This document shows, piece by piece, positions 10,305-28,737 of a DNA stretch of 64,000 nucleotides. The notes beneath the pieces are model-generated. The model was given only the letters and a program-made list of their open reading frames with translations, did not search any database and had not been told where the DNA came from. The stretch is taken from the NCBI GenBank assembly GCA_045589295.1, contig JAZNOU010000005.1:114398-178397 (forward strand), given 5' to 3'. Position 1 is the stretch's first letter. The number at the start of each line of letters is the position of its first letter. Origin of the DNA: Clostridia bacterium (lineage in GTDB: Bacteria; Bacillota; Clostridia; RGIG6154). The translations under genes were made by a program, and so were the position numbers.

Positions 10305-12725
10305 ATGAAGCAGTATACAATTACGGGCATGAGTTGTGCCGCTTGCAGCAGTCGTGTTGAAAAAGCAGTCTGTACTGTTGATGGTGTTGAACAATGTTCG
10401 GTTAATCTTTTAACAAACACATTATCAGTAGAAGGTACTGCCAAAGATGATGATATAATTGTAGCTGTCATTCACGCAGGATATGGGGCATATCAAAAAG
10501 AAGAAAATATTAAAACAACCCAAAGTGGATCTGATATTTTTTCTTCTTTAAAAGCGCGACTTATTTCATCTTCAATTTTTTTGCTTGTGCTTATGTACAT
10601 TTCGATGGGTCATACTATGTGGCATTTCCCGCTTCCCGAATTTCTTGAAAATAACCATTTCCTCCTGGGGTTTTCACAATTGATTTTATCAGCAATTGTC
10701 CTTATTATAAACAAAAGCTTTTTTATAAATGGTATAAAAGGATTTTGGAATAAATCGCCTAATATGGATAGTTTAGTCGCTTTAGGTGCAGGCGTTTCTT
10801 TCGTCTACAGTGTCGCCGTTTTGTTCTTTGCCAACAATATTCACGACCTTTACTTTGAATCGGCAGCTATGATTTTGGTTTTAATAACAGTAGGAAAATT
10901 GCTTGAAGCCTACTCAAAAGGAAAAACAACTAATGCAATAAACTCCCTTATTAATCTTGCACCACAAACTGCAGTTGTTTTAAAAGACAATAATGAAATT
11001 GTTGTTCCAATTAACGAGCTTAAAGTTAGTGATATATTTGTTGTAAAACCAGGAGAAAGTATTCCTGCAGATGGGATAATAATTGAAGGTTTAACCACAG
11101 TTGACGAGTCGATGCTAACAGGTGAGAGTATCCCTGTTGATAAAAATATCGGTGACAGCATTTCTGCTGCAACAGTAAATCAGACAGGTTATATAAAAGT
11201 TAAAACTACAGGTGTTGGTAATGATACTTTTTTAGCTCAAATAATAAAAATGGTAAGTGATGCATCAAGCACAAAAGCACCTATTGCTAAAACGGCAGAT
11301 AAAGTATCAGGTATTTTTGTTCCAATTATAATTTTAATTGCAATTATAACGGTTATAGGTTGGATGATATTTGGGCAAACATTCGAATTTGCTCTTACAA
11401 GAGGTATTGGCGTTTTAGTGATCAGTTGCCCATGTGCATTGGGACTTGCAACACCGGTCGCTATTATGGTTGGCGGCGGCAAAGGCGCCCAAAACGGGAT
11501 TCTTTTTAAAAACGCATCCTCACTCGAATACGCAGGTAAAATTACCGCCGTTGTACTGGACAAAACAGGAACTTTAACCAAAGGAACTCCCTGTGTTACT
11601 GATATAATTCCTCACGAATGTGAAGAAAAAGAACTTTTGACACTCGCATACTCACTTGAAAAACAAAGCGAGCACCCACTCGCCCGTGCAATAGTAAGTC
11701 ACGCACAAGAAAAGAACGTTACAAGTATTGCGTGCGAAAATTTCAAAACCCTGCCCGGCAACGGACTTGAATGCTATATAAACCAAAAATTAATTCGTGG
11801 AGGAAACTTAAATTTTGTAAGTAAATTCACCTCCATTCCTCCAAATCTGATTACAGAAGCCGAATTTTTAGCTCTAAATGGCAAAACTCCTATGTTTTTC
11901 TGTTCAGATGACAAGTGCATTGGTATCATTGCTGTTGCAGATACATTAAAGGATGACTCCGCGCAGGATATAAAAACATTAAAACAGATGGGACTTTATG
12001 TTGTTATGCTCACAGGTGATAACAAAAAAACTGCTTCTGCTATTGCAAAATCCTTAGATATTGATGATGTTATCGCAGAAGTTTTGCCTGACGGAAAAGC
12101 TGATGCAATCAAAATTCTTCAAAATAAACACAAAGTTATGATGGTAGGTGATGGAATTAACGACTCACCCGCTCTCACACAAGCAGACATTGGGATTGCA
12201 ATAGGAACCGGAACGGATATTGCCATAAATTCTGCTGATGTAGTTTTAATGAGCGGAAGTCTTAAAAATGTGCCTGCAGCAATAACCTTGAGCAGAAAAA
12301 CTCTCAAAAATATAAAAGAGAATCTCTTCTGGGCGTTTATTTATAATATAATTTCAATTCCGCTTGCAGCTGGACTTTTTATCATTCCCTTTGGTATAAA
12401 ATTAAGTCCAATGATAGGCGCTGCAGCAATGAGTTTGTCCAGTTTTTGTGTTGTCACAAACGCACTTAGATTAAATTTTGTAAAACTATATAAAGAAGAT
12501 AAGGAGAAAAAAGCTATGAAAAAAACATTAACAATTCAAGGTATGATGTGCCCTCACTGTGAGGCTGCAGTAAAAAAATGCTTAGAAGCACTCCCCGAAG
12601 TTATTTCAGCGCACCCTAGCCATGAAACAAAAACAGCAATAGTTGAATTAAACACAGAAGTTGATACAAACTACTTAAAAAAAGCAGTCGAAGATGCAGG
12701 CTATACCGTTTTGGATGTGAAATAA
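10305..12725 (+). CDS. copA: copper-translocating P1B-type ATPase with N- and C-terminal HMA domains
   Basis: [38 protein letters not shown] and MSLSS motifs, C-terminal GMMCPHC. Confidence 0.93.
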
Positions 12726-12736
12726 TAATTGCAATA

Positions 12737-12770
12737 TAAAAAGGGCGAAATCAAATCGCCCTTTTTATTA
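12737..12770 (+). terminator. intrinsic terminator after copA
   Basis: AAAAAGGGCGA-aatcaaa-TCGCCCTTTTT. Confidence 0.8.
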
Positions 12771-12785
12771 TTTTTTAAAAAACTC

Positions 12786-12814
12786 TTTACTTAACAACAA
12801 ATTTATGGTATTAT
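12786..12814 (+). promoter_or_regulatory. host tRNA-Pro promoter
   Basis: TTTACT-17bp-TATTAT, 25 bp upstream of the tRNA 5' fragment at 12840. Confidence 0.6.
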
Positions 12815-12839
12815 ATTACTTGTTTGATAAATCATATTT

Positions 12840-12888
12840 CGAGGTGTGGCTCAGTTTGGTAGTACACCTTGGACACAGAGTATACTCA
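12840..12888 (+). repeat. attL: 5' 23 nt of tRNA-Pro(CGG) fused to element P' arm
   Basis: CGAGGTGTGGCTCAGTTTGGTAG identical to 13118-13140, followed by TACACCTTGGACACAGAGTATACTCA. Confidence 0.88.
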
Positions 12889-12936
12889 ATAAAATTTAAT
12901 AATTATCCATTCATTAACCAAAATGAATGGTATTAT

Positions 12937-12985
12937 CGGGAATTAGCGCAGTTTGGTAGTACACCTTGGACACAGAGTATACTCA
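12937..12985 (+). repeat. second attL-like junction: 5' end of a different tRNA-Pro-like gene fused to the same P' arm
   Basis: CGGGAATTAGCGCAGTTTGGTAG + TACACCTTGGACACAGAGTATACTCA; 37-bp identity with 12852-12888. Confidence 0.8.
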
Positions 12986-13117
12986 TTATATTTTTGTCAC
13001 TACAAAAAAATTCGCCGTTTTTTGACCTTTCGTTCAAAATCGGAGTAGTCATTAAAATGCCTTGCCGTATTTGGCCGACTACAATTTATATTTTGAAAAT
13101 TGAATAAATAATAATAT

Positions 13118-13194
13118 CGAGGTGTGGCTCAGTTTGGTAGAGTACTTCGTTCGGGACGAAGGGGCCGCAGGTTCAAATCCTGTCACCTCGACCA
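13118..13194 (+). tRNA. tRNA-Pro(CGG), intact copy inside the element
   Basis: Cloverleaf, anticodon arm CTTCG-TT-CGG-GA-CGAAG, GGTTCAAATCC T-arm, encoded CCA. Confidence 0.96.
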
Positions 13195-13195
13195 T

Positions 13196-13240
13196 AAAAA
13201 GGGATTGCTATTCAAAAGACGAATAGTAATCCTTTTTTAT
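13196..13240. terminator. terminator between tRNA-Pro and convergent recombinase
   Basis: AAAAAGGGATTGCTATTC-loop-GAATAGTAATCCTTTTTT. Confidence 0.8.
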
Positions 13241-13266
13241 TATATCAACCACTAATATTGATTTAT

Positions 13267-14919
13267 TTAAGAAGATAATGCTTGAAACCCTAATCCGTTT
13301 TCAAACTGTTCTAAGTTAATTTTGAAATTAACTGTTAATTCATACCCTTTCTTTACTGATATACTATCTATAAGATGTGCAACAATAATTTGTTTTGTTT
13401 GTAAATCAGCATTTTCATAAACATCAGCCCATTTGATAATGTTGTTATATTCTTGTTCTATTTCATAACAGTTTTTCTGTAGCTCCTCAAAGTCTGTTTC
13501 ACATCTTTGTACTTGTTCTAATAAAGGCTGTACTTCATTTTTCAATCTCTTTAGAATTTGAAGTAATTCTTTGACAACTTCATCAAATTGAGATGCACTT
13601 ACAATCTTACTTTCTATTGAACGAATTTCATCTTGCTTTTTTCTATACAAATTCTTTGCTTGATTAAGACTACCTTGTATCCGTTTCCATTCTGTTTGAT
13701 ATTTGTAATTGATAAACTCACCGCTTTGCAAGGCTTTTGTACGTCTTAAAAGTTGTTTTATCATATCATCAATTACATCATCAATTTTATATGCTCTATA
13801 TTGTGTTTGAGCTTCATCACTTACACAGATTTTTTCTTTCTTTCCTTCATACAAGCGATTTTCACAAACATATGTCGGTATACGTGGATTATCTTCGCTG
13901 ATTGGTTTATGACCATTTAACCTTGTTGATTTTGTTCGCAATTTAGCTCCGCAACAATCACAATGTATAATTCCTGACACAAGACCTTTTCCAAAAGTGG
14001 GAACATCTGATACATCATTACAAGACATAGATATTTTTTCCTTTATCTCGGTATCTTTTGAACGTCGTTCGCATCTCAATTTTTGCACAAATTCAAAAAC
14101 AGATGGTTTAATTATTTGCAAGTGTGGATGAATTTTAGATACTGTTTCACCACTTTTCAGTACACCTGTATATGAAATATTATCAAGAATACTGTTAATT
14201 GTAGATTGCCCGAATAGTTTTCCTTTTTTATTTTTTATACATCTTCTTGCTAATTCATTGGAAATCTTTCTTGCTCCCCAAAAATTCTCATATGCTAATT
14301 GAAATATCAGTTTGACAACTTCTGCTTCATATGAGTCAATTTCCAAATCGTAGACCTCTCTGTTTTTATGATTAATAGTTCCTTTCTTAACAATCTTATA
14401 ACCATAAGGAATATACCCACCTGCATATAATCCATCTTCAACCATTTGTCCTCGTTTCTTGCGTACTCTTGTACTTGTCTTAGCTGATTCACCAGAGCTT
14501 TGCCAGAAACGGATATAATTTATTAGGTTATCAACATGATTTTCAAACTTTTGTTGTCCTTCGACTACACTCCAAACCTCAACCCCTTGTTCAACAAACC
14601 ATTTTAAGACAAAAGGAGTTTCACTTTCTATACGTCCCAACCTGTCAAACATAAAGACAAGGAGGATATCAAATTCTTTGCGTAGAGCCTCATCTTTTAA
14701 TTCTGTGATTTTATCTCTGTCTTTAGCCGACACCTTGTATCCTGATATGCCTGTCTCAACCTTTTCATCAATTAAAATCCAATCGGGGTGCAATGAAATA
14801 AATTTACGACATTCTCGGCTCTGTAAAGGTATGTCATATTTATTATTTTCTTCATCAACTAATGTTGCACATTGTTTTAATGTACTGTTACGATACAAAG
14901 TCTTTACTCGTTTTTTCAT
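13267..14919 (-). CDS. large serine recombinase (resolvase + recombinase + Zn-ribbon + coiled coil)
   Basis: LYRNST catalytic Ser region, VFMFDRLGR, GGYIPYGY, IIHCDCCG...YVC; RBS GGAGGGG before 14919. Confidence 0.93.
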   Translation of the reverse strand: MKKRVKTLYRNSTLKQCATLVDEENNKYDIPLQSRECRKFISLHPDWILIDEKVETGISGYKVSAKDRDKITELKDEALRKEFDILLVFMFDRLGRIESETPFVLKWFVEQGVEVWSVVEGQQKFENHVDNLINYIRFWQSSGESAKTSTRVRKKRGQMVEDGLYAGGYIPYGYKIVKKGTINHKNREVYDLEIDSYEAEVVKLIFQLAYENFWGARKISNELARRCIKNKKGKLFGQSTINSILDNISYTGVLKSGETVSKIHPHLQIIKPSVFEFVQKLRCERRSKDTEIKEKISMSCNDVSDVPTFGKGLVSGIIHCDCCGAKLRTKSTRLNGHKPISEDNPRIPTYVCENRLYEGKKEKICVSDEAQTQYRAYKIDDVIDDMIKQLLRRTKALQSGEFINYKYQTEWKRIQGSLNQAKNLYRKKQDEIRSIESKIVSASQFDEVVKELLQILKRLKNEVQPLLEQVQRCETDFEELQKNCYEIEQEYNNIIKWADVYENADLQTKQIIVAHLIDSISVKKGYELTVNFKINLEQFENGLGFQALSS

Positions 14920-15067
14920 TGCTCCCCTCCATGAACATTTTTTCCAATAGTAGTTTTCCAACAGAGTTTTCTGCACTAATATTTCTATCTTCTGAAAAAT
15001 TTACTGTGATTGTTAATCCGTTGATAGTCATTTTTGTAGTGTTATCTGATTGAACATTCTTAATCAT
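14888..15067 (-). CDS. 59-aa TnpW-like small protein overlapping recombinase start (not in ORF track)
   Basis: MIKNVQSDNTTKMTINGLTITVNFSEDRNISAENSVGKLLLEKMFMEGSNEKTSKDFVS; RBS GAGGTG. Confidence 0.6.
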   Translation of the reverse strand: MIKNVQSDNTTKMTINGLTITVNFSEDRNISAENSVGKLLLEKMFMEGSNEKTSKDFVS

Positions 15068-15327
15068 CTAACACCTCACCCCCTACACTATCAGACAGAG
15101 GGAGTGAAACTTTTTTATTATATACTGAATCATAAAGAAAGTACACCGTTTTTTTATGATTTATAAACTTTATATTTTGTTTCATAACAAACGCTCCTTA
15201 TCCGTTATAAAGCGTTTGGAATGTATTTTGTATGATTATTTATTATTGTTGAGTAAATACATACCTCAACGTGCTTTAATGTGTATTTAAACATTCAAAT
15301 TTATATTGTTAATAGTTGATTTAGGTT

Positions 15328-15356
15328 ATATGGGCGGTTTTTATACCGCCCATATT
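15328..15356. terminator. terminator after rep operon
   Basis: ATATGGGCGGT-tttt-ATACCGCCCATAT hairpin. Confidence 0.65.
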
Positions 15357-15365
15357 TTCAGAATT

Positions 15366-15806
15366 CTAAATCAACAATCCGTTCTCATCAAAAAGTTTCC
15401 ATGCATTTTCCGAATTTTCTGCTTCGTAATACTCAACAATCGCAGTAATCGGAAAAATGGTTTTTCCATCCTGATATATTTGCACAACTCTTTGTGTCTC
15501 AATTTCAGAGGTAGTCATATAATCAATATCAGAAAAAAACTTCTTACATTTGGCATGTGAACTTACAAACCCAACACCGCTTGGAATATCAAGAGAAAAA
15601 GAATCTACTTCTTGCTCTTTGACATCTCCAACATATGTGATTAGACACGCTCCACCATTGAAAATACATATTTCTGATATGTTTGTATCTTTAATATCGG
15701 AGTTTGTGTCACTTGTTACAACGACATATTCTTTTAAAATTTCGTTATTTAGTTTGTTTTCTTTATCATCAATCAAACTAATTCTTTTTACTTTACTTAT
15801 ATCCAT
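15366..15806 (-). CDS. hypothetical protein (rep operon)
   Basis: 146-aa ORF, RBS AAGGAG, co-oriented with rep. Confidence 0.7.
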   Translation of the reverse strand: MDISKVKRISLIDDKENKLNNEILKEYVVVTSDTNSDIKDTNISEICIFNGGACLITYVGDVKEQEVDSFSLDIPSGVGFVSSHAKCKKFFSDIDYMTTSEIETQRVVQIYQDGKTIFPITAIVEYYEAENSENAWKLFDENGLLI

Positions 15807-15808
15807 AC

Positions 15809-16168
15809 TTATTTATCTCCTTTATTACTTTTTGTTTTAAATATATTTTGATTTTCCCATTCCTCTTTGTGAACATATTCATTTTCAAATCCGATACAAT
15901 TTGATAGAATATGTTCTTCGTCAATGACAGGTTCATAACCAATCATCATTAAGAATTGTTTAATGAACCAATACGGAGCTTTTATTTCAAATCCTTGTAT
16001 CATTCCGTTTTTAACATTCGGTTTGACTTTATATTTCTTCCTCGATTTTGGAACAAATAAATTTTTCTTTACCATTATTCCAGCATAAAAATCATCAATA
16101 TTGGCGGTTGCCATATCATCATAATTTAATCTGAAAAAATTGCAAAAATTATAATTGAAATTTTTCAT
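15809..16168 (-). CDS. hypothetical protein (rep operon)
   Basis: 119-aa ORF overlapping rep 3' end. Confidence 0.65.
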   Translation of the reverse strand: MKNFNYNFCNFFRLNYDDMATANIDDFYAGIMVKKNLFVPKSRKKYKVKPNVKNGMIQGFEIKAPYWFIKQFLMMIGYEPVIDEEHILSNCIGFENEYVHKEEWENQNIFKTKSNKGDK

Positions 16169-17009
16169 AATCTCTATAACCTTTCTTATTATTAAAATAT
16201 TTTTTTGTAATGATATTTACAATGTTATCATCTCTTGAAACCTCATAAGAATCATTTTTGTATTCTATAAGGTTATTTGATTCAGCTAATTTCAAAGCTG
16301 AATCATAAGACATTTGGGACTTTTGAGGGCGGTTTATTTTCCCTCTGCACCTAAACACTTTTTCATATTGCTTATAACAACTTAATCTCATCATTTTTTT
16401 ATTGTTGTGAAATGGATTTAGGTAGTCTATTAATCCGTCAATATCATAAATTGGTCGAAAATCGACTTGTCCATTTTTCCACAATGATTTAATTTCAAGT
16501 TCAGACAAGGTCATTTTTTGGTTGTCACATCTTTTCAATAGCAGATGGATGTGAGGATTATAATTTGTTTTAAATCCTTGATATTCAACGACAAACATAG
16601 CTTTGTATAATTTGTGATTATCAACAAACCGACAAAACCTCCCCCAAAAGTTTTTTATGTCTTTTGTAACAGAATTATCTTCTGCTACTTTTCTGTTGTA
16701 AGTCAGAGTGATAAGCCCCTCTGAACTATCACCATTGAAATTAAGTGATATTAACAATGACAAGTCAAGAAAAGTATTTCGTAATGAATTAATATTCCGC
16801 TTATCATTTAATGATTTGTCAATGGTTTTTATCTCTCCTGTGGTAGTGTTTAAATACTGATTATTAGATATTTTTCTATATCCCACATCCTCACCACTTC
16901 GTTTATGAGATATTAACATATATTTCTCAGAAAAATATACTGTTACAATATCATCTTTATCCAATGGTTTATCCGTTGTTCTTACAACTGAAATTTGATT
17001 ATGGTTCAT
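16149..17009 (-). CDS. HUH-family rolling-circle replication initiator/relaxase
   Basis: motif I LITLTY, VVEYQ...PHIHLLL (HUH), W..G.V.F, candidate catalytic Tyr in LIDYLNP. Confidence 0.8.
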   Translation of the reverse strand: MNHNQISVVRTTDKPLDKDDIVTVYFSEKYMLISHKRSGEDVGYRKISNNQYLNTTTGEIKTIDKSLNDKRNINSLRNTFLDLSLLISLNFNGDSSEGLITLTYNRKVAEDNSVTKDIKNFWGRFCRFVDNHKLYKAMFVVEYQGFKTNYNPHIHLLLKRCDNQKMTLSELEIKSLWKNGQVDFRPIYDIDGLIDYLNPFHNNKKMMRLSCYKQYEKVFRCRGKINRPQKSQMSYDSALKLAESNNLIEYKNDSYEVSRDDNIVNIITKKYFNNKKGYRDYEKFQL

Positions 17010-17180
17010 ATCAATACAATCACCCTCTAAATTTATTTTCTGTCAGTTTAACGCGTCCGTTAAATTGTTCAGAATGTTATGTGGTAATTACCCTGTCTTT
17101 ATAATAGCATAGAATGAAAAATAATAATATTGACAAATTTTCCTTTAAATTATATAATGTAAATGCAGGAAAAATAAGAG

Positions 17181-18167
17181 GTGAAATATATGAATGAAAC
17201 AGAGTTTAAAGGACTATATTATGTTTTTGAATATGATATTGATGCGGGATATATGATTGAATATGTTTCCCCTTGTAATTTGGTTGAATCAAATGGAAAC
17301 TATATTTATGAAGATACTTGTATTGCAGCTAATTTTACAACTTTATTTTTATGTAGCTATGGTTATTTATCGAAAAAATTCAACAATATAGACACCAAAA
17401 TCTTTGACAAGAACTTAAAACAATCACCTCAATTATTAATTATGTTAAAAGACTCTTGTAAAGAAAGTAATATTAAAAGAACAAAAATTGATTTTGAGAA
17501 CATAGAAAAATTTTTAAAAAATACAGATTGTCATAACTTATCAGCTCTAAATTATTTTTGTAGGTTTGCAAACAAAAAAATACCTTCAGCCATTGAAGAT
17601 GTTTATAGAGATATACCTTTATTAAAATCTGACAATAAAGCATTCAACTATTTGAAAGACAATATCAAATATCAAAAGAGTAACGATTTAATAGTTGAAG
17701 CTGAAAACAGATTGGGAACCCAATCCTTTCAAAGAATTTACAAAATACTAGATCCAATGGATTTATTTTTAGTAACTTTAGATATTCTATATCAATTAAA
17801 CTGGACTATAAAGTTTTGTAAAAATTGTGGACTTCCATTTCTAGTTACCAAAAGGAAGAAAACATTATATTGTTCATATAACAACAACTCTTGTAAAATA
17901 GAGGGCAGAAAAGAAAAAGAAAGAAATCGTTATATAAATAATGAGAGAAACAGACTTTACAGAAATATTAATGGAAAATTTAGTTATAGAGCAATACATT
18001 GTAGAGGACATGAAGATGAATGGGAATCTCTTCATTCTATTTTTCTTAATACAATTTATGATAACAAGAAAAACAAAAATATTATTATATGGTTGAGAAA
18101 TATCGATTCACTATTTAATCTTCATAAAACCGAACTTTTTGAATTACCTGACATCAACTCAATATGA
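17181..18167 (+). CDS. DUF6076-like protein with CxxC...C...C Zn-finger
   Basis: IKFCKNCGLPF...LYCSYNNNSCKIEG followed by basic helix. Confidence 0.6.
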   Translation: MKYMNETEFKGLYYVFEYDIDAGYMIEYVSPCNLVESNGNYIYEDTCIAANFTTLFLCSYGYLSKKFNNIDTKIFDKNLKQSPQLLIMLKDSCKESNIKRTKIDFENIEKFLKNTDCHNLSALNYFCRFANKKIPSAIEDVYRDIPLLKSDNKAFNYLKDNIKYQKSNDLIVEAENRLGTQSFQRIYKILDPMDLFLVTLDILYQLNWTIKFCKNCGLPFLVTKRKKTLYCSYNNNSCKIEGRKEKERNRYINNERNRLYRNINGKFSYRAIHCRGHEDEWESLHSIFLNTIYDNKKNKNIIIWLRNIDSLFNLHKTELFELPDINSI

Positions 18168-18455
18168 GTTTATGGTTGTGTATTAATAAAACATTGTGAA
18201 TTTTTATGAAATTAAAGAAATATATATATTTCTTACTATCAGTCTGTGATGTTTTGATGATGAATTTATGTGTTATATACATGGTATATAACATTCATTT
18301 TGTTATACATATTTATATATTTTTAATATAACAATGAGTCACTTGTATCCATATAATAATTAAAGAGATTTTTTAAAGGGTTGCAGTATTTCTGTAATCC
18401 TTTATTATTTTTCATTAAAATAAAATTATAAAATTTATATTTTGGAGATGATATT

Positions 18456-18668
18456 ATGATAAAAGTTATTGAAGATTTACAGAATGACAAAATGAAAAAC
18501 ATTAACAAGAATATTAACACAGTTATTTGCAGATTAAAAACAATACAAGAGAACTTACAATTCACCGCTAAGAAATATGATTTGGAAACATTGTATGACA
18601 TTTTATCCCAGATATACGATGACCTTGGTGATTTTAACATTTCAGTATATGATGAAGACAACGTGTAA
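18456..18668 (+). CDS. small hypothetical protein
   Basis: 70 aa, RBS GGAG. Confidence 0.55.
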   Translation: MIKVIEDLQNDKMKNINKNINTVICRLKTIQENLQFTAKKYDLETLYDILSQIYDDLGDFNISVYDEDNV

Positions 18669-18684
18669 ATTGGAGGTGGTAGTT

Positions 18685-18867
18685 ATGAATAATGAAAAAA
18701 GAATAAACAATTCATTTATAAATGATATAATGTTCGCAAAAGAAGCAATAAAGACTCTACAAGACTCAATATATCGATATTACCCTGAAAACTGTTTTGA
18801 AGTCCTCCCATTACTTCACAAATCTTATGATAATCTTGCATTAACAATTTATCGTTTAACAAAATAA
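18685..18867 (+). CDS. small hypothetical protein
   Basis: 60 aa from ATG 18685 after GGAGGTGG RBS. Confidence 0.55.
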   Translation: MNNEKRINNSFINDIMFAKEAIKTLQDSIYRYYPENCFEVLPLLHKSYDNLALTIYRLTK

Positions 18868-19001
18868 ATTAATATGTTCAAAGTGCATAAACTCACCTTA
18901 CAAACGACTTTATTAACCTTTTTATATAAACCTTATTATTAAAATATTAAGTTTGTTTTAAATGGGTTTGAGTGATTAAAGCATAATTTAAGTATAACCA
19001 C

Positions 19002-19043
19002 AAAAAAGACAGGTTGCCTATCATTGACAACCTGTCTTTTTCC
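19002..19043. terminator. bidirectional terminator
   Basis: AAAAAAGACAGGTTG...CAACCTGTCTTTTT. Confidence 0.8.
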
Positions 19044-19159
19044 TATTTCGATTATGCCAAATTATTCTTCTTTATTATTCCCCACTTTTATTAAAAAGGT
19101 TTCTATTCCCATAATAGTCAGCCCCAACCAGCAAAAGCTCTAATATCCCTGTATAAACA

Positions 19160-19711
19160 TCATCTGTACATTTGAGTTGCAATATCTGTAATCAAAACAC
19201 AAGCAGTCATACTATCCTGAATACTTACAGAATCTGTGCAAATCTCTTGATAATCAAATGTGCTACCATAATACTTTGCAGAAGCCTCAGGGACAATTGT
19301 TTTATCAGCATTTATTGAAAACAGATATACATATGTAAAATCTTCTTTTGTGGAATAATCCTTTGCTGAAGCGATACATACATTAACACTTAATTCTCCA
19401 TAATATTTATCATTATCATAAACGAACTCACTATCTTGAATTATTTTTTCTATAAAACTACTATCTTCTTTTATTTTCTCTTCACTCCATGATGTTGAAA
19501 CCATCGTCATTATTTTGTCATTTTCGTCATTATAAGAGTCCATTTTCTTTACAAAATCAGATACCGTTTTCATTTCATATGAATTATCTTCAGCAAAAAT
19601 TTGATAATCTTCGACCGATGTTATAAATTCTTCATTTGTTACCCCACATCCAGTTACATTAATCAACACCAGCAAACATAGTAACAAAATGCTTATTTTT
19701 TTTGAATACAT
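19160..19711 (-). CDS. putative lipoprotein
   Basis: signal peptide with lipobox VTGC; RBS GGAGGG. Confidence 0.7.
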   Translation of the reverse strand: MYSKKISILLLCLLVLINVTGCGVTNEEFITSVEDYQIFAEDNSYEMKTVSDFVKKMDSYNDENDKIMTMVSTSWSEEKIKEDSSFIEKIIQDSEFVYDNDKYYGELSVNVCIASAKDYSTKEDFTYVYLFSINADKTIVPEASAKYYGSTFDYQEICTDSVSIQDSMTACVLITDIATQMYR

Positions 19712-19727
19712 CCGTAATCCCTCCCTA

Positions 19728-19958
19728 TTATTGTGCACGTCTAACACACTCTTCACAATATGATAAGGTGTTTATTAATGAGCCTCTATTTTTACAACTA
19801 TTATTTGCACACTTATGCAAAGTACAGTAATTAGACCCCAATGGACTTCTTTCAGATGGGCATCCCGAGACGGAACAATATTTTACTCCGCAGCCTGAAA
19901 GCAAAATCAACAGTATTGATAATAATACCATAGTTAAAATAAACGATGTTTTTTTCAT
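19728..19958 (-). CDS. small Cys-rich lipoprotein
   Basis: lipobox LSGC then CSVSGC...CTLHKCANNSC...YCEEC; RBS AAGGAGG. Confidence 0.7.
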   Translation of the reverse strand: MKKTSFILTMVLLSILLILLSGCGVKYCSVSGCPSERSPLGSNYCTLHKCANNSCKNRGSLINTLSYCEECVRRAQ

Positions 19959-19999
19959 ATGTAGTTCCTCCTTAGCTAATAAAATAATTTTATTAAAAA

Positions 20000-21199
20000 T
20001 TATTCGACTTTCTTCATAGTTGCTTGTGTTTTCCCTACAGATTCTATTTCATACTTAAACCCATTTTCTATTCTTACATGATTATCGTATTGAACATTCC
20101 CCATTTTGAATATAATCTTGTCTCCATTCACTCTGTATGGAATTACTATTATATCCTGTCCACGTAGAATATCTGCCTCTTTCGATGTGTCTTCGGGTCT
20201 ATATGTAGAAAAGTCAATAGTAAATGTTCCGTTGGTTTTATATTCCCATATTGAGCCGTCAGGATTTTGCCATTTACCTATAATAGCTTTTTCTAAAGGC
20301 AATTTCGTTTCAGTAGGTTGATATGTTAAATCTTTTTTAGGATATATATAGATGTATCGTTTATTATCATCAGAACTATATGTATAGAAACAAACATTTC
20401 CTACAACAGCAATAGCTTTTTCTTCATTATCAATTATGGATTCTTTTAATACAGACCAAATCTTGTTTTCATAAAGACTTTCATCCAATTCAGGAAGCAA
20501 AGCCATAGAGATAAACTTGGTTTGTTCTCTTATGACATCTTTTTCGCTTGTCGACATATTATTGTATACATCATTATCAATTTTCCAAATTACACTGCTA
20601 ATATGATTTGAAAACTCATCTACGTAAACTCGTTGTTCGCTTATTACTGACGGAAAAAAGTTACGTGTTATCTTTGTACCATTATCATTTGTATAAAATC
20701 CTTCTATAGTTGAACTATAAAACGATGGAATAGTATATTTTGAGCTATTTGTATAATGTTCAGCTTCGACATAATAATTGTAATTGTCAATAAAATCCTC
20801 ATAATCAATATCAAAATACCTTTCACCATTTTCATCAACATTTATGTTAGCAAATCTATCAATACTTTTTGAGGCAGTTTCCAACTTATTGTTTTGTTGC
20901 GACATAGTTGCACCATTGTTATAATTATTCTGACCCACTTCTTTATTAGATTTGTTATTCAATGGTGTATTTAACCTCCACGCAACCAAAGCACATATTA
21001 TCAAAATGCATGTAGTTATTATAGTGTTTATAATCACTCTTTCTTTCTTTTTCCTCAATGCTGACTGCTTATCCTCATTTTTTTCGAGGGTGTTTGTGTA
21101 AGCATACACTTTGCCACATTCCGAACAGATATATCGTCCGTTGTAATTTACTATTTTCCCTTCACACTTAGTACAGATTAAAGATTTAATTTCTTGCAT
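20000..21199 (-). CDS. Zn-ribbon + single TM + extracellular domain protein
   Basis: CTKC...CSEC at N-terminus, one TM helix, C-terminal IIGKWQ (lipocalin/DUF5640-like). Confidence 0.7.
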   Translation of the reverse strand: MQEIKSLICTKCEGKIVNYNGRYICSECGKVYAYTNTLEKNEDKQSALRKKKERVIINTIITTCILIICALVAWRLNTPLNNKSNKEVGQNNYNNGATMSQQNNKLETASKSIDRFANINVDENGERYFDIDYEDFIDNYNYYVEAEHYTNSSKYTIPSFYSSTIEGFYTNDNGTKITRNFFPSVISEQRVYVDEFSNHISSVIWKIDNDVYNNMSTSEKDVIREQTKFISMALLPELDESLYENKIWSVLKESIIDNEEKAIAVVGNVCFYTYSSDDNKRYIYIYPKKDLTYQPTETKLPLEKAIIGKWQNPDGSIWEYKTNGTFTIDFSTYRPEDTSKEADILRGQDIIVIPYRVNGDKIIFKMGNVQYDNHVRIENGFKYEIESVGKTQATMKKVE

Positions 21200-21347
21200 T
21201 ACTTCTCCTCCTTAAACTTTATTCTTAAAAACCTTTCTCATATTATATCACACACTTTTTCGACATGCAACTATTTTTTAGTTCATATTTTGACTATATC
21301 GTTAAATAATAATATCAGTTAAAATTATATTATATGGAGGTGTTAGT

Positions 21348-21521
21348 ATGGATTTTATAATAAAAAAACCTACAAGTTCAAACCGAACAGTCAGAATGCC
21401 TGATGAGTTGATTGACAAAATTGGCAAACTCGCAAATGACAAGGGTATTTCCTTTAATCAGTTAGTTATTCAATGTTGCGAATTTGCATTGGAACACTTA
21501 AACGATAAGGAAAGCAAGTAA
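21348..21521 (+). CDS. ribbon-helix-helix (Arc/YlcI-like) DNA-binding protein, 57 aa (not in ORF track)
   Basis: MDFIIKKPTSSNRTVRMPDELIDKIGKLANDKGISFNQLVIQCCEFAL; RBS GGAGGTG. Confidence 0.8.
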   Translation: MDFIIKKPTSSNRTVRMPDELIDKIGKLANDKGISFNQLVIQCCEFALEHLNDKESK

Positions 21522-21546
21522 TATAACCAGCTCCTTCTATGTGTGG

Positions 21547-22341
21547 TTATATCCAATCTTCAAGTTCAGATACCATCCCTTTTTCAAAGGATTCCTTTTG
21601 AAAAGGGATGGTTTTTTGTTCTGTCTCATTTTCTTTGATTGCTGTAACCTTTAACTCTACTTTTACAGAATCATATTTATTTTCCATAATGACATTTCCA
21701 TAGGAGTCAATTATACCAATCCCATTTTCCCCCTCTGTGATATTGCAAACATTTTGACGGTTAATAACAATCGGATGGTTAAATATTTCCTTATACACCT
21801 TATATTCACCCTCTTGTGGATACAGATATGTACTATATCTTGCATCATAAAATACAGGTCCTTTTTCCGTATTTCCACAAAAGCAAAAACAAGACTCACT
21901 ATATGAGGTATATTCCTTTTTATAAATCTCTTTGCCCAATTCTCCGTATAAGATATACTGATACTTTTCATCTTTGCAATATAAAAACGGAGTTTCAACA
22001 ACAATGTCAACAAAATCCCGTGCTGTGTTTGTTGCTGAATTATAGTATCTTACTTTTTGGTCGTTACTGAAAATCAAATCATGACCGAATGTATCCAGCG
22101 TGTCATACTCACTTTCAGCAATAAAACATACTTTGTCTGTTTCTATTCTGACCGCTCCGATTTTACCTTTTTTATGTATAACAAATACGTTCTTTCCATA
22201 CATAAAAATATTATCATACTCAATTGGTAAAATACATAAGTTGTCAGTAAGGTTTTTAATTCCCATCATCCCGTTATCAGATATAACTTTAATACTGTTT
22301 AAAACTGATTTTTCAAACACATTCCTTCTGCTAAATAACAT
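21547..22341 (-). CDS. WG-repeat-like protein
   Basis: GMMGIKN...ILPIEYDNI, GKIGAV...ESEYD, GIGIIDSYGNVIMENKYD repeats. Confidence 0.6.
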   Translation of the reverse strand: MLFSRRNVFEKSVLNSIKVISDNGMMGIKNLTDNLCILPIEYDNIFMYGKNVFVIHKKGKIGAVRIETDKVCFIAESEYDTLDTFGHDLIFSNDQKVRYYNSATNTARDFVDIVVETPFLYCKDEKYQYILYGELGKEIYKKEYTSYSESCFCFCGNTEKGPVFYDARYSTYLYPQEGEYKVYKEIFNHPIVINRQNVCNITEGENGIGIIDSYGNVIMENKYDSVKVELKVTAIKENETEQKTIPFQKESFEKGMVSELEDWI

Positions 22342-22492
22342 AATATCCTCCCATTTTTATAATTGTAACTGCCATTTTTATAAATATAAACCAAGAGCAC
22401 ATAAATGTACATAGCCAAGTTACAAAAAAGACCGCCTATGTAATTATACTTTTAACTACATAGAAAGTCTTGGACATTTTGTCCACTTTTGT

Positions 22493-24037
22493 TTAATTAG
22501 GAATTATTCTGTTATCTTTTAATAAATACCCTGTGATATCACCTACATCTTCCCAAGTCACGTTTAGTTTTCTTATATTATTATTTATCCAAAATGCATA
22601 CCCTTTAGAGAACATCTCTCCTTCGCATAAGACAAATCCTGTTTTTTCATCATAGCTGATACACCAGGCTATACAATAATTAAAATTATTATAAATCTGT
22701 TCTCCTGCTACACCGATTACACCTTCATTAAGTCCTATTAAAAGTTCTGTTCCACCATCACCATCAAAGTCATAACAGATTATGTCAGCATTTTTTCTTA
22801 AATCATCCGAATAATCCTTAGAATATTCGTATTGGTTGTTAAAACTAAATTTATTACTGTATTTATGACCTTTGCTGTCATCTAACGATACAGATAAAAT
22901 CCCACCATTCAAAGTTATATCTGCATCTACAATAGTATTATTCTTTCCTATTTTTATTTTTCCGTTTTTATTTATATCTTCTAAAAGCAAAATATGTTCC
23001 CAAGGTTGTTGCATTGAGAAAACACAAACATTGGACAACAAGTTGTATTTTTTATACTCAGACTCTTTCTGTCCTTCTAAAAATCCGTAAAATGTTCCTT
23101 CGAAATCCAACTCCTTGTTTTCCTGATTCGTTACCTCTTTTTCCTCAGTTTTTTCAATAACTATATTATTTTTCTCAACCTCTGTTTCAGGCTCGTTTGT
23201 AACCTCAGATTCAGGCACATCTGTTTTAGTTTTCTGTTCTGTCTTTTTATCGTTGCCCTGTTGTGTTTTAACTTCTATTCCATTTTCATAATTCAAAAGG
23301 TTAATTATAATCAATGCTAATACAATTACTGAGAGTGCAAAAATGAAGAGATATTTTAACGAGTTAAGTGTTATCGCTCTTTTTACCGCTTTCACACTTT
23401 GATATCTTTCAGACGGGTCAAGCCTTTTACACTTTTCTGCTACCTTATATAAAAAGCCTTTTATATTTATGTAATCAAGAAGTGTTTTTAAAGTTACACC
23501 AAACGCATATATATCTGTTTTAAAATCAGTAGGAAGCATACCATATTGTTCAATAGGTGCATATCCAAATGTACCTATTGTTTCGGTATCACGTCGTACT
23601 TCTTTTCGGTAAATTCGTGCAATATCATAATCTGTCAACCATATGTGGTCTGATTCATCAATCAGAATATTGTCAGGTTTAATATCTCTATGTATTATGT
23701 CGTATTCGTGGAGTTTATCAAGAGCTGATAAAAGTTGATTAGATATAGAATATATCTGCTTTTTACTTAACTTTTTGCCCTGTGCCATATAATCACTTAA
23801 AGACATACCTTTAACATATTCTTCAATAACTATAGTGTCTGTATCAAATCCGACATAATAAATCTTTGGAATACTTTCGTGATTTATCTTTTTAAGTAAT
23901 TTATATATTTCTCTTTTGTCACCGCTTATTACTCGTTTTAAATATCTCTTTTTGTCAGAGCCTTCCATCAATAAAATTTTTTGACGTTCACTCTGCCTTA
24001 TTATTTCTATTTCCCTTATGGAGTCTATATCGAACAT
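22493..24037 (-). CDS. membrane-anchored Hanks-type Ser/Thr protein kinase
   Basis: IIHRDIKPDNI, DYDIAR, GTFGYAPIEQ, TDIYAFG, TM helix, extracellular C-terminus. Confidence 0.9.
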   Translation of the reverse strand: MFDIDSIREIEIIRQSERQKILLMEGSDKKRYLKRVISGDKREIYKLLKKINHESIPKIYYVGFDTDTIVIEEYVKGMSLSDYMAQGKKLSKKQIYSISNQLLSALDKLHEYDIIHRDIKPDNILIDESDHIWLTDYDIARIYRKEVRRDTETIGTFGYAPIEQYGMLPTDFKTDIYAFGVTLKTLLDYINIKGFLYKVAEKCKRLDPSERYQSVKAVKRAITLNSLKYLFIFALSVIVLALIIINLLNYENGIEVKTQQGNDKKTEQKTKTDVPESEVTNEPETEVEKNNIVIEKTEEKEVTNQENKELDFEGTFYGFLEGQKESEYKKYNLLSNVCVFSMQQPWEHILLLEDINKNGKIKIGKNNTIVDADITLNGGILSVSLDDSKGHKYSNKFSFNNQYEYSKDYSDDLRKNADIICYDFDGDGGTELLIGLNEGVIGVAGEQIYNNFNYCIAWCISYDEKTGFVLCEGEMFSKGYAFWINNNIRKLNVTWEDVGDITGYLLKDNRIIPN

Positions 24038-24108
24038 TTTAGACAACTCCTTGCATATTTCGACAATGTATACTATAATAATTATAGTAAATTCAGGGAG
24101 GATTGTCA

Positions 24109-24528
24109 ATGTATACAATAACAGATGAATTACTAAAAGAACTCAAAAACGCATCAGATATAGAATCGTTTTTCAAATCTCATGAGAATCAGTTTATAAA
24201 CGAAACAACATCAAGTTATCTAAATAAAATGCTCGAATTAAGAAATATAAATATTTCTGCTATTGCAAAAAATTCAGGTACAGGTGAGTATGTATATAAG
24301 ATATTCAGAGGTGACAGAACCGCTTCCCGTGATATTTTAATTTCTATCGCTTTTAGTATGAAATTATCTTTAGAAGAAACTCAGTTGCTACTTCGAATTT
24401 CTAAATTCGCCATACTTGATTCACGTAACAAAAGAGATAGTATTATAATATATGGTCTAACTCACAATTTAACTGTTTTTCAAGCAGATGATTTGTTAGA
24501 AGAACAAAATATGACAACATTAAATTGA
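24109..24528 (+). CDS. XRE-like HTH regulator, divergent from kinase
   Basis: ISAIAKNSG...YVYKIFRGDRTASRDILISIAF...LSLEETQLLL. Confidence 0.75.
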   Translation: MYTITDELLKELKNASDIESFFKSHENQFINETTSSYLNKMLELRNINISAIAKNSGTGEYVYKIFRGDRTASRDILISIAFSMKLSLEETQLLLRISKFAILDSRNKRDSIIIYGLTHNLTVFQADDLLEEQNMTTLN

Positions 24529-24541
24529 TTTATACAAATGC

Positions 24542-25117
24542 TCATAAATTTACCGCATTGTAACAATCTATAATCACTTTTTGAGTAATACCTATATATC
24601 TTAATGTAATTGCACTCGATGAATGATTTAGGAGTTTTTGAAGTGTTTCTAATGGTACATTATTAATGTATCTGTGATATGCCATAGTCTTTCTTAATGT
24701 ATGTGTACCGAAATTACCTTTAATCCCTAAATCCTTTGTAAGTGTTTTAATGATATGATGCAGAGGTCTTACTCCTAAATGACTACCCTTTCGACTTTTA
24801 AATAAAAAATCCTCCATATCATAGTTTGCTAAAGAGTTAAGATATACCTGTATCGCACCTTTAGCATTTTTATTTAATGCGAAATTCCTTGTTTTTCCTG
24901 TTTTCTGTTCTTTAATAGTTACTGTATCAAATATTATATTTCCATCTGTAACATCATTAATTTTTAATGATAATAAATCTCCTGCTCTTAATCCAACATT
25001 GATTCCAACAACAAATATACAGTAATCTCTCTTATTTTCTTTTCCGTATAAATATTGCTTGATTTTGTTAATATCTCTTGTGTTTTTAATTGGTTCAACC
25101 TCTTTTGGTAATGTCAT
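24542..25117 (-). CDS. small tyrosine recombinase (catalytic domain only)
   Basis: GLRAGD, KEQKTGK, HTLRKT, LLNHSS...TLRYIG. Confidence 0.92.
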   Translation of the reverse strand: MTLPKEVEPIKNTRDINKIKQYLYGKENKRDYCIFVVGINVGLRAGDLLSLKINDVTDGNIIFDTVTIKEQKTGKTRNFALNKNAKGAIQVYLNSLANYDMEDFLFKSRKGSHLGVRPLHHIIKTLTKDLGIKGNFGTHTLRKTMAYHRYINNVPLETLQKLLNHSSSAITLRYIGITQKVIIDCYNAVNL

Positions 25118-25429
25118 ATGTTTAATCTCCTTTTTCAGTTGTAACTTAATTTTTTACAATTATATATCGCGTGTGTGAAAAAGTACACCGTTTTTCACAT
25201 AAAGAAAAATATTACCTTTTGCCCATTTAATGAACATAAGGTAATATTCAAAACTTGTTTTTATTAAATTTTAAACCTCACATTTCCCGAAACCATTACA
25301 AGAGTTAAGTTTGAGATGTTTGTGTGAATGATACCTTTTGTTAAAAGGTATTATTCGTTGACAATTAAACATTGAAAGAATCTAAAATTTTTGATATACT
25401 TTATACATAAATGTATAGGAGGAATTTGC

Positions 25430-26347
25430 TTGAATCTTTTCATAATTGGAAACGGATTTGATTTGGCTCACAACTTGCCAACACAATATATGAACTTTAG
25501 AGAATATTTAGAGGAAAGAGATTGGAACTTTCTTATGATGTTAGAAGAAACATATGGATTTTGTTCAGATAGCAACATAGAATATCTAAAAGAATATTTA
25601 TGGCAGAATTTTGAAACCAATTTGTCCTACATCAATGAAACAGAAATAATAGAACTCGGCTCACATATTGACTTAGGATTAGAAGGTGGTGATTTTGGAG
25701 TAGAAGAAACGTTAGATTATTATTGGGAAAACCAATATGGCTACATAAAAAAATTAAATGAATATTTATATTCTTGGATAAATCAAATTGATATTAATGT
25801 TGATAGAAAGACAAATTTTATTAACGAAGAAAACTATGATTTATTCATAAATTTTAATTATACACTATTGTTAGAAGAACTATATAATATAGATTCATAT
25901 GATATTCTCCATATTCACGGCTCCGTATATCCTCACGACACACCGCCGATTATAGGACACGGAGATTATAAGAAAATAGAAGAAATGTCATCAAAAGTTT
26001 CTGAATATTCAAATGTAAATATGGAAAAGGAAACGAGCATATATAATGCTGTTCGTAATTTTTATGAAAGAACTTTTAAGGATGTAAAACACTACATACG
26101 GTGGAACGAGAATTTTTTTGTTAGATTAAAGGAAATTGAACAAGTGTTTATTGTAGGTCATTCCTTTGGTGATGTGGATTTACCCTACTTTAAAGAGATA
26201 TTGTCTTATGTTCCTAAAAACGCACAATGGAATGTATATTATTATAAACCTGAAGAAGAATTATTTTTTAAAGATAAACTGATTGAAATTGGAATTAATG
26301 AAGAGAATATAAAGATGTATCATACATCAACATTTTTTAATATGTAA
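25430..26347 (+). CDS. abiH: AbiH-family abortive infection protein (SIR2-like fold)
   Basis: LFIIGNGFDLAHNLPT, FNYT, HIHG, IIGHG, VGHSFGDVDLPYF; TTG start after AGGAGG. Confidence 0.88.
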   Translation: MNLFIIGNGFDLAHNLPTQYMNFREYLEERDWNFLMMLEETYGFCSDSNIEYLKEYLWQNFETNLSYINETEIIELGSHIDLGLEGGDFGVEETLDYYWENQYGYIKKLNEYLYSWINQIDINVDRKTNFINEENYDLFINFNYTLLLEELYNIDSYDILHIHGSVYPHDTPPIIGHGDYKKIEEMSSKVSEYSNVNMEKETSIYNAVRNFYERTFKDVKHYIRWNENFFVRLKEIEQVFIVGHSFGDVDLPYFKEILSYVPKNAQWNVYYYKPEEELFFKDKLIEIGINEENIKMYHTSTFFNM

Positions 26348-26436
26348 ACTATTATTATATGCAGCTAACGGATTATTACATTTGGAATTATATAACTAAA
26401 GATATGAATAAAAACTCTATCAAGGAGGGAGTACAT

Positions 26437-28065
26437 ATGAATAAAATTGAAAACACATATTATCAAAAATCTAATATCGAATATCTTAAAAATATATACG
26501 GAAAAGAACTTTGGGTTCAAGTCTCTGGACGCAGAGATTTAAATGGAGCCGTTGCAAGCTTTTGGACAGGATTAGTTTATTTGGATGATTTAGATAAAAT
26601 TACTCAAAAATCAGATTGGGAGGCTCATATTGGAACACAGGCTCCTGGTTTTGTCGAATATGGTAATGGTGATATAGAGTATGAGAAAATCTCAGCTTCG
26701 AATATTTATTGTGAACACATTGTAAACTATAGAGATTTTTATGGCATAAAGCCTGAATATGTTGAAGTTGTCGATGAATTTAGACTCCTTAACAATTTAT
26801 ATCATGATTTCCAATCTAACACACTTTACGCAATTAAGGATAATGGAATTTGTGATGAAGTAGTTAAAATTGAAAATAATACGAATGTTTTTATAAAGCT
26901 AAAGTATTTAATCAATTATGCAACGGCTAAACAAATGGCTTTACTACTGTTTTTTGATATTGACCAGCAAATTTCTGGAACATTGGAAAAAAATCAATTA
27001 AAAAAATTTTCTGATAGTCATATTGGTAAAGATATTGTATACAGCATTTGGGGAGATGAAATGGGAGGGAGTAATTATGTATATAGTATCTTAATGGGTA
27101 AAAAGATAATTATGCCTAAACCAATTAATGAATGTGGTTATTGGCCATATGAGAAAGAATATGAATATTTAGACTTTATTATTGGAAATGATGAATACGG
27201 TGAAAACAAAACATTTACATCTAATCCTAACAAATTAGCCAACTACTTCGGTGCAAATCCAGATGCCCCTCACTATTTAACACCTGTTTTCTTTAATAAA
27301 GAAGTATTGCAAAAATACTTATCTTCTGATATTTATAGCATAGAAGATGGTTACTTAAGATGTCGCGGACTTTGGGGCTTAAGAATGGATAACCATCATA
27401 AAGACTATGTAGTTGTTTACTTGGGAGATTTAGGCAAAGAATTACCTTATGAAGAACAACACCATTGGAAAAATTATAATATTGTTTCTGACGATACGAT
27501 TAGTAATGCAAAATTCAAAAGAGATTTCTTAGGAATTCCAAGCAACGCTGAAATTTCTGATTTAAAATTCAAAGCAGATTTTTCATGTTTTCAAAAACAA
27601 TGGTACAATAAATTTGGATGGTATTTATTTTTACCGCTTACCTCTGATGATGAATATAATTTTAGTAAAATACATATTCCAATCGTGAATACACAAGATG
27701 AATTTGACCATTTAGTATTGTCATTAGTAAAAACAATTATTGATTCACTTAACGAAAAAGAAATAAAAAAATTAGTGAAAGACACATTGGATAAAAAGAG
27801 TGGTCAAGAATTAAAAGGAAGTATATCTAAACTTGAAAGATGGTTTGAAGAAAGTAATCTTACAGACTATATTGAACACATAGAATTTTTAAGGAATTTG
27901 CAAAATCTACGTTCTGCCGGAACAGGACATCGAAAAGGAAGCAACTATGATAAAATTTCAAAAGAGTTTGATTTAGATACTGAAAGTTACACAAATGTAT
28001 TTGATTCGATATTAGAAAAGACAAATATGTTTTTAAGTTACTTAACCAATACCTTTTTAGCATAA
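26437..28065 (+). CDS. hypothetical protein with C-terminal HEPN-like motif
   Basis: LRNLQNLRSAGTGHRKG (R-x5-H) in helical C-terminus; RBS AAGGAGG. Confidence 0.55.
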   Translation: MNKIENTYYQKSNIEYLKNIYGKELWVQVSGRRDLNGAVASFWTGLVYLDDLDKITQKSDWEAHIGTQAPGFVEYGNGDIEYEKISASNIYCEHIVNYRDFYGIKPEYVEVVDEFRLLNNLYHDFQSNTLYAIKDNGICDEVVKIENNTNVFIKLKYLINYATAKQMALLLFFDIDQQISGTLEKNQLKKFSDSHIGKDIVYSIWGDEMGGSNYVYSILMGKKIIMPKPINECGYWPYEKEYEYLDFIIGNDEYGENKTFTSNPNKLANYFGANPDAPHYLTPVFFNKEVLQKYLSSDIYSIEDGYLRCRGLWGLRMDNHHKDYVVVYLGDLGKELPYEEQHHWKNYNIVSDDTISNAKFKRDFLGIPSNAEISDLKFKADFSCFQKQWYNKFGWYLFLPLTSDDEYNFSKIHIPIVNTQDEFDHLVLSLVKTIIDSLNEKEIKKLVKDTLDKKSGQELKGSISKLERWFEESNLTDYIEHIEFLRNLQNLRSAGTGHRKGSNYDKISKEFDLDTESYTNVFDSILEKTNMFLSYLTNTFLA

Positions 28066-28083
28066 ATTTTAAAGGAGATACAA

Positions 28084-28656
28084 ATGGAATTTTATGAAAT
28101 TATGATTAACCTATCTATAGGAATAACGGGCGGTATATTTTCTAGTATTATTGTTTCACGTATCTTTTTAATACATTCTTCGCATTCAGAACAATTAGCA
28201 AGAGTGCAAGAGCATTTTGAAAATACTTACAGATTGAGTGGAACATTACTTTTTTATATGTATGCATTTCAAAAAGATGAGAATAATTTTGACGATGATA
28301 CTATTAATCGCTTTAACGACGCATTGCTAAAAGATATACACGAAGTATCAAAACAAGAATGCGAAAAATTTCGGTATATGATTTTCGATGACTTAGAAAT
28401 AGAATTATATAAAATCGCTGTTAATTTAAACGATTTAATGGAAGGAACACTATCATTAAATAAAGTCGATATATCTATAGTAAGAAAACTTCATAAAGAC
28501 TTATTTGATATACAAGATAGATTTAAAAAGTATAAGATAACTAACAACAAGCATTTTGTGACAAAAATAAAAAAGGACAAAATATTACGAATACTCATTC
28601 TTGCTTTGGTTATAATACTCATTTCAACAATAATATCTTGTATATGTGCTAAATAG
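28084..28656 (+). CDS. hypothetical protein with N- and C-terminal TM helices
   Basis: hydrophobic ends, charged helical middle; RBS AAGGAG. Confidence 0.7.
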   Translation: MEFYEIMINLSIGITGGIFSSIIVSRIFLIHSSHSEQLARVQEHFENTYRLSGTLLFYMYAFQKDENNFDDDTINRFNDALLKDIHEVSKQECEKFRYMIFDDLEIELYKIAVNLNDLMEGTLSLNKVDISIVRKLHKDLFDIQDRFKKYKITNNKHFVTKIKKDKILRILILALVIILISTIISCICAK

Positions 28657-28737
28657 AAGTTTATCAATGCAATCAAATATTACAGCTGTATTTTGCTATT
28701 AAAACGCAAAATTATTCATAATAAGAATAATTTACAA

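Follow-up and report, generated by a model that had tools for sequence, protein, structure and literature searches.

Why should the left end of a mobile element begin twice? The window analysed here, that is the whole stretch of 64,000 nt under study (Clostridia bacterium of lineage RGIG6154, assembly GCA_045589295.1, contig JAZNOU010000005.1, positions 114,398-178,397 of the forward strand), comes from a draft assembly of 22 contigs and 1.54 Mb and contains an element of ~16 kb (about 15.9 kb inserted, 12863-28764) that encodes a large serine recombinase (LSR). This element starts with a 26-nt P' arm, and the same arm returns 97 bp further on, behind a second tRNA 5' end. We propose, with a probability of about 85%, that these 97 bp are the relic of an attL junction, formed when related LSR elements integrated site-specifically one after the other.

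The element interrupts the host tRNA-Pro(CGG) gene in its D-loop, after GGTAG. The split was recognised from the full-length replacement tRNA-Pro(CGG) gene (77 nt) that the element carries at 13118-13194 (+): the first 23 nt of this gene are those of the piece at 12840-12862 (+), which forms the B arm of the outer left junction (attL1), and its nt 24-77 recur exactly at 28765-28818 (+), the 54-nt 3' part that forms the B' arm of attR. The attL1 piece forms 7/7 pairs with the 3' acceptor strand at attR. The carried gene is the sole tRNA-Pro(CGG) call made by ARAGORN in the window and scores 64 bits with the Rfam tRNA model; the 23-nt fragment at 12937-12959 is called by neither ARAGORN nor Rfam. 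Carried and split genes are 100% identical over 77 nt. The explanation that we prefer does not predict such complete tRNA identity.

Upstream of the split gene lies a promoter-like site (TTTACT, a 17-nt spacer and a TG-extended TATTAT; 12786-12814, +), and the same block precedes the tRNA-Pro locus in two congeners, G001 and G002. A promoter scan of 12650-13300 gave 3 promoter-like sites against 3.1 expected. The carried tRNA, which is near P', lacks a convincing promoter for itself; this suggests that it may depend on transcripts that start at the captured host tRNA promoter and read through. CCG makes up ~18% of the proline codons in long open frames (a rough genome-wide count that does not use gene calls), so the codon read by the element-borne tRNA is in regular use.

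Both junctions have the anatomy of serine integrase att sites. When the 24 element-side nucleotides of the two junctions are compared, P and P' form an inverted repeat about the AG of GGTAG that matches at 18/24 positions; with the axis placed at six other points, only 4 to 8 of 24 match. An imperfect inverted repeat about a central dinucleotide is the expected form of a serine integrase attP, and the symmetry of P and P' makes AG the probable crossover dinucleotide. The P arm and the shared core ending in GGTAG occupy 28738-28764 (+), at the right end of the element, as an imperfect inverted repeat with P'. The attP of such enzymes measures ~50 bp and has few bases in common with attB; here TGGTAG is all that is common to the host tRNA, attL and attR. 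Serine recombinases have only a few bases in common with their target, and with so little in common the tRNA is split and not rebuilt. Indeed, the crossover at attL is followed by the P' arm and not by the tRNA, and that at attR is preceded by the P arm, which is not the arrangement of an island that restores its tRNA with a carried 3' part, where attP and attB are identical from the crossover up to the 3' end of the tRNA and one junction regains an intact gene.

An unoccupied attB is seen in relatives. In the congener G001 an intact tRNA stands behind the host-type promoter block. Three other samples yielded contigs that agree with the host flank 12500-12862 but for 3 to 5 differences and stop at that point, and the X1 contig passes 12862 by 12 nt, which are the next bases of the tRNA. 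These contigs, from gut samples of the runs X1-X4, ending at the tRNA or continuing into it, indicate that the species occurs without the element in other samples.

The recombinase (569 aa, 13267-14976, minus strand) has the Pfam domains Resolvase, Recombinase and Zn_ribbon_recom (PF00239 and PF07508 exceed their cut-offs; PF13408, with 23.4 bits, lies just below its cut-off of 25.3 bits), as expected of an LSR integrative element, and matches the PHROG integrase family phrog_95 at 1.4e-57. The element further encodes a rolling-circle-type replication protein (REP_ORF2-G2P domain match; 16149-17009, -), a Ser/Thr kinase resembling the PD-T4-6 and mad6 defence models (22493-24118, -), a small tyrosine-recombinase-domain protein of 191 aa (24542-25117, -), an AbiH abortive-infection protein (25391-26347, +) and two unannotated proteins of 568 and 190 aa (26359-28656, +). 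With this kinase and AbiH cargo, the gene content looks like that of a small defence island. Three blocks, with 84-89% identity, are common to this element and to the one in genome G041; among them are block 24538-25350, which includes the small tyrosine-recombinase-domain protein (89%), and block 26433-28819, which holds the 568- and 190-aa proteins (84% DNA identity). Domain, PHROG and defence-model searches detected no phage structural genes in the element, and no directionality factor was identified in it. No excised circle or attP junction was seen in the collections scanned (species genomes, JGI metagenome contigs and IMG/VR viral contigs).

The original prediction had described a P' arm recurring after 97 bp, a hairpin in the 48-bp spacer and a tRNA 5' end whose 3' half is missing from the window, and all of these were found again. 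The 26-mer occurs exactly twice in the window, at 12863-12888 (+), where it would represent the left end of an earlier element, hereafter E1-type, and at 12960-12985 (+), the left end of the resident element; it has no other occurrence in the 1.54-Mb genome, and 0/100 shuffles gave a match, even at up to 3 mismatches. The exact repeat measures 37 bp (D-arm 11-mer plus P' arm); the 12 bases preceding it differ at 6/12 positions and the sequences downstream of the two P' copies are unrelated. The E1-type spacer of 48 bp (12889-12936, +), similar to the spacers of loci L031 and L035, folds into a 9-bp hairpin (12907-12915/12922-12930; -7.6 kcal/mol, z = -3.0), and 1/200 shuffles folds as well. 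It is followed by the 23-mer that constitutes the B arm of the inner junction, attL2 (12937-12959, +), and that would be the beginning of the E1-carried tRNA allele, cut at GGTAG. This 23-mer is identical at 23/23 positions to the start of the ARAGORN-called tRNA-Pro(CGG) genes of L031 and L035, and also heads a tRNA-Pro 5' half at the syntenic locus of the congener G002; it is thus the 5' end of a tRNA, as had been supposed. None of the three host tRNA-Pro genes (GGG, CGG and UGG) begins with it. The 5' end is therefore real and distinct from that of the host gene; the part of the prediction that did not stand is the attribution to a different tRNA species, the sequence being another allele of the same isoacceptor. 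The 3' half of this second tRNA is absent from the rest of the genome as well as from the window, and neither another P arm nor another copy of the LSR is present in the genome. Between P' copy 2 and the carried tRNA, the resident left end has a 132-bp segment (12986-13117, +) without counterpart in the elements of G041 and G042, and this layout from P' to tRNA is absent from all other loci compared. By eye, the last ~25 nt of the segment resemble the L049 spacer and the leader of the G001 chromosomal tRNA-Pro.

The source of the inserted 97 bp was sought among relatives by applying a degenerate pattern that fits both arms to ~185,000 species, each represented by one genome; this gave five loci, four of them relevant. 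The fifth, L033 (Virgibacillus), matched the pattern and was dropped from the locus count for having no adjoining tRNA piece. At L031/L032 (JAZQFN010000048.1) a host tRNA 5' piece precedes the same P' arm; a hairpin spacer of 48 bp comes next and leads to a complete tRNA-Pro(CGG) headed by the exact 23-mer, and the P arm with the host tRNA 3' part lies ~12 kb further along. In the genomes G041 (L031) and G042, an LSR 89% identical to that of the window lies beside the same junctions, at L031 next to the carried tRNA. The L031 spacer is identical to that of the window at 44/48 positions, and that of L035 at 42/48. L035 (SVJK01000017.1, genome G043) shows the same order around 1870-2040, from the 5' piece of the host tRNA through the P' arm and the spacer to the carried tRNA-Pro(CGG). 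Its likeness to the G041 element ends just after the tRNA and no LSR was found in the genome, so that a left end can outlive the rest of its element; this locus looks like an element remnant whose carried tRNA would have been left behind as a resident gene. The 3' end of the L035 tRNA is followed by TTA, and the other carried genes encode CCA. Intact left ends of the type that had been postulated, an element with its own replacement tRNA, therefore exist in other genomes.

The segment 12863-12959 was compared with the left end of the G041 element (L031): the two align with 95.9% identity for 97 nt, exactly as far as the GGTAG crossover. Since the alignment stops where the second P' begins, 12863-12959 is an E1-type left end cut within its carried tRNA, which supports the predicted integration of a second element into that tRNA.

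The suggestion that such elements stack into arrays of att junctions is likewise supported by other genomes. L034 (JAZQAZ010000006.1; LSR 89% identical) has two near-identical units, each composed of a tRNA 5' piece, a P' arm and a 49-bp spacer, before a full carried tRNA. Used as a query on metagenome contigs, the LSR retrieved 14 relatives, two of which (L049 and L050, with 90% and 81% identity) have the tRNA-splitting architecture. L049 has one unit and L050 has two, and the latter differ in both their tRNA 5' pieces and their P' arms, which requires two different elements and excludes a simple duplication at that locus. The 12 other relatives (L051-L062, 31-46% identity) were not counted, no tRNA-Pro D-arm/T-arm motif being present in their available flanks. 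When units per locus were counted from the P'-arm and LSR searches, 3/6 loci of this element type had two (the window, L034 and L050) and none had three, in a tally that comprises a small sample (the window, L031/L032, L034, L035, L049 and L050). The carried genes were called tRNA-Pro(CGG) at all six loci. Within the family (here equal to the order), the P' arm occurs in 1/18 genomes, that of the window itself, and an LSR at E <= 1e-60 in 2/18, the other match (G012) being only 38% identical. The degenerate P/P' pattern had 0 matches in JGI metagenome contigs and IMG/VR viral contigs, a result that is uninformative on rarity because the metagenome relatives L049 and L050 are each one base off the pattern. 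No LSR relatives were found in viral contigs.

From the junction anatomy, the E1-type left end present elsewhere, the truncation point and the recurrence of stacking in other genomes, the following history can be proposed. LSR elements of this type would recombine an attP, composed of P and P' around AG, with the GGTAG of the tRNA-Pro(CGG) D-loop. Close behind the P' end of each lies a complete tRNA-Pro(CGG) gene with a terminator, oriented the same way, and this carried gene would itself offer a fresh attB. An E1-type element, with its P' arm, 48-bp hairpin spacer and carried tRNA, would have integrated first into the host gene. A second element would then have entered the E1-carried tRNA, which would have been cut after nt 23 and joined to the P' arm of the newcomer. 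Finally, the matching right junction and the rest of E1 would have been removed, likely via homologous recombination between the two related elements, leaving one element flanked by attL1, attL2 and a single attR. The loss of the E1 remainder is inferred: nested integration should also leave the rest of E1 and, as inner right junction, a P arm joined to the E1 tRNA 3' part, and the genome contains neither. Given the three blocks in common with the G041 element, recombination between relatives could plausibly have deleted one element's worth of DNA. The scar itself probably has no function today. Among the points that weigh against this history are that an independent second element with the resident 132-bp left-end layout is seen at no other locus, and that the chromosomal tRNA-Pro locus of G002 is a second possible source of the 23-mer.

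The two integrations need not have taken place at this locus. The composite might have been built elsewhere, by an element entering the tRNA carried by another copy in an earlier host, or between excised circles, with the dimer then collapsed and brought here through its outer attP. The scar does lie inside the segment that attL1 x attR excision would remove, the L034 units are near-identical copies of that element's own left end, as self-targeting would give, and the consulted part of a review on integrative mobilizable elements holds that transfer of a whole composite is not excludable for accreted elements (PMC5704250). No second copy of the exact composite was found in the family genomes, the ~185,000-species scan or the metagenome and viral contigs, which argues against such travel. 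We consider assembly elsewhere a serious possibility, although not the favoured one; being a variant in timing and place, it is in no conflict with the mechanism. Far less probable is an origin of the second unit in the chromosome of a former G002-like host, whose attL junction would have been captured by aberrant excision. G002 belongs to the same genus and has the exact 23-mer right after a syntenic copper-ATPase-like gene and the host promoter. However, the 48 nt before the 23-mer match the element spacers of L031 and L035 (44/48 and 42/48), the G002 leader matches poorly (28/51 columns in a gapped global alignment of AT-rich sequence), and a second, perfect P' arm ahead of the captured piece is not what aberrant excision would produce. 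We therefore hold this origin to be very unlikely.

Least probable of all, and in our opinion hardly tenable, is that the repeat arose as an error of assembly, or through replication slippage that duplicated the sequence locally. The draft state of the assembly (22 contigs) and the lack of independent read coverage over 12874-13110 leave some room for it: none of the 24 public runs listed contains half or more of the window's sampled words, and contigs of 4 runs give zero depth at 12874-12907 and 12976-13077, with an X2 trace of 0.53-1.91 at 12908-12975 that comes from a different tRNA-Pro gene. As no run covers the array, misassembly is excluded by argument only, on a repeat that is just 37 bp long with unique sequence on both sides (6/12 upstream bases differing, downstream sequences unrelated) and on the same architecture, with different sequences, in two other independent assemblies. 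The interposed 97 bp also match a real element end in other assemblies. A simple duplication was rejected, the flanks being different and the interposed DNA matching a foreign element end. Two successive integrations of related elements thus remain the preferred reading.

The original prediction had proposed a relaxed specificity for the D-arm, which holds among CGG alleles: the seven distinct tRNA 5' halves found at nine junctions all end in CAGTTTGGTAG (11 nt), and the sequence just 3' of the crossover varies among carried and host alleles. The proposal fails if the D-arm alone is meant to suffice, for the host tRNA-Pro(UGG) bears the same 11-mer and is intact and unoccupied, which means that the 3' side matters as well. 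The alleles also bear on excision. The segment delimited by attL1 x attR contains the scar, and a hybrid tRNA formed by attL2 x attR would pair at only 4/7 acceptor-stem positions. Restoration of a working gene by the outermost junction pair only may thus favour retention of the element.

The same tRNA is also split by unrelated elements. In G003 and G002, which belong to the same genus, and in G017, tRNA-Pro(CGG) is interrupted at the anticodon loop by a tyrosine-integrase element (L013, G003:C19:4500-9692, at 1700-2190; L014, G002:C4:1-4000, last 250 nt, minus strand; L015, G017:C222), and this junction motif was found in 3/18 family genomes. As in the window, the element carries its own complete replacement tRNA-Pro(CGG), here ~165 bp in from the left end, and G003 and G002 each have a stack of two [5' half + arm] units. 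The order in G003 is host 5' half and arm, ~165 bp, carried 5' half and arm, ~165 bp and the full carried tRNA-Pro(CGG), with the integrase gene (Phage_integrase and SAM_3 domains) ~1.4 kb beyond; in G002 the two units run up to the contig end. These elements differ from that of the window in their recombinase family, in their crossover at the anticodon loop and in their unrelated arms. Two unrelated recombinase families therefore share a break-and-replace strategy on tRNA-Pro(CGG) and build the same kind of scar array. When the outermost 5' half at the G002 locus (L014 in C4), which begins with the 23-mer, was compared by eye with the 3' half beside the syntenic right flank (L016 in C12), 2/7 acceptor pairs failed. 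This locus therefore seems to combine ends of different tRNA alleles, a hint that its past was more complex.

It is tempting to generalise, with considerable doubt, that tRNA-Pro(CGG) may serve as a portable landing pad in gut Clostridia, on which serine (D-loop) and tyrosine (anticodon loop) families would have converged. The only host copy would be broken and a horizontally swapped, element-borne allele used in its place, the carried copy would invite the next element, and the inner scars would act as a ratchet. A serine-recombinase element can target a tRNA gene without costing the host that tRNA, since a complete spare is carried, and the use of this spare as the next integration site gives arrays composed of attL scars only, in which past visits can be read. 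The CGG isoacceptor allele in use can change with each element, and can persist after element loss, as in G043. Units composed of a tRNA 5' piece and a P' arm also offer a simple signature by which such elements can be searched for and mapped in gut metagenomes, and the recombinase with its several natural attB alleles constitutes a ready-made set for tests of target tolerance in serine integrases.

A full-text literature search, with subscription journals mostly outside its coverage, found no description of a recombinase element that breaks a tRNA gene and brings an entire substitute for it, which is not proof of novelty; several known systems share part of this arrangement, and repeated integration at tRNA genes with partial tRNAs left over has been well described. 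Tycheposons of Prochlorococcus integrate repeatedly at tRNAs, pushing older elements inward and leaving partial tRNAs as a trail, and in the survey that describes them 910/937 elements use tyrosine recombinases and the flanking att copies are partial tRNAs (bioRxiv 10.1101/2020.12.28.424599). The part of that preprint consulted mentions no carried full-length replacement tRNA, which sets the present elements apart. IMEs and prophages with serine recombinases that insert inside genes (rumA, ICE genes) resemble our element by their LSR, their very short att identity and their disrupted target, as far as described in the consulted sections of the review (PMC5704250); unlike them, the element studied here brings a working copy of the gene that it breaks. 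A further such system is the tandem accretion of ICE, IME and CIME at the ends of tRNA or ribosomal-protein genes, in which, according to the same sections (PMC5704250), successive integrations at one locus leave internal att sites while older elements decay, and composites may move together. Successive integrations at one locus and internal att sites would be common to both, and side-by-side remnants are also present here, with the 97-bp E1-type remnant between attL1 and attL2. The differences, drawn against the same partial source, are that the target tRNA is destroyed here and a complete carried spare becomes the next target, and that only attL-type junctions accumulate, each with a 23-nt tRNA 5' piece. 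Neither attL1 nor attR is a whole tRNA, and the gene entered by the second integration was a separate, carried, full-length one. The stacking at this locus is therefore tandem accretion in an altered form, in which the element breaks its target, brings an intact spare and offers this spare to the next integration.
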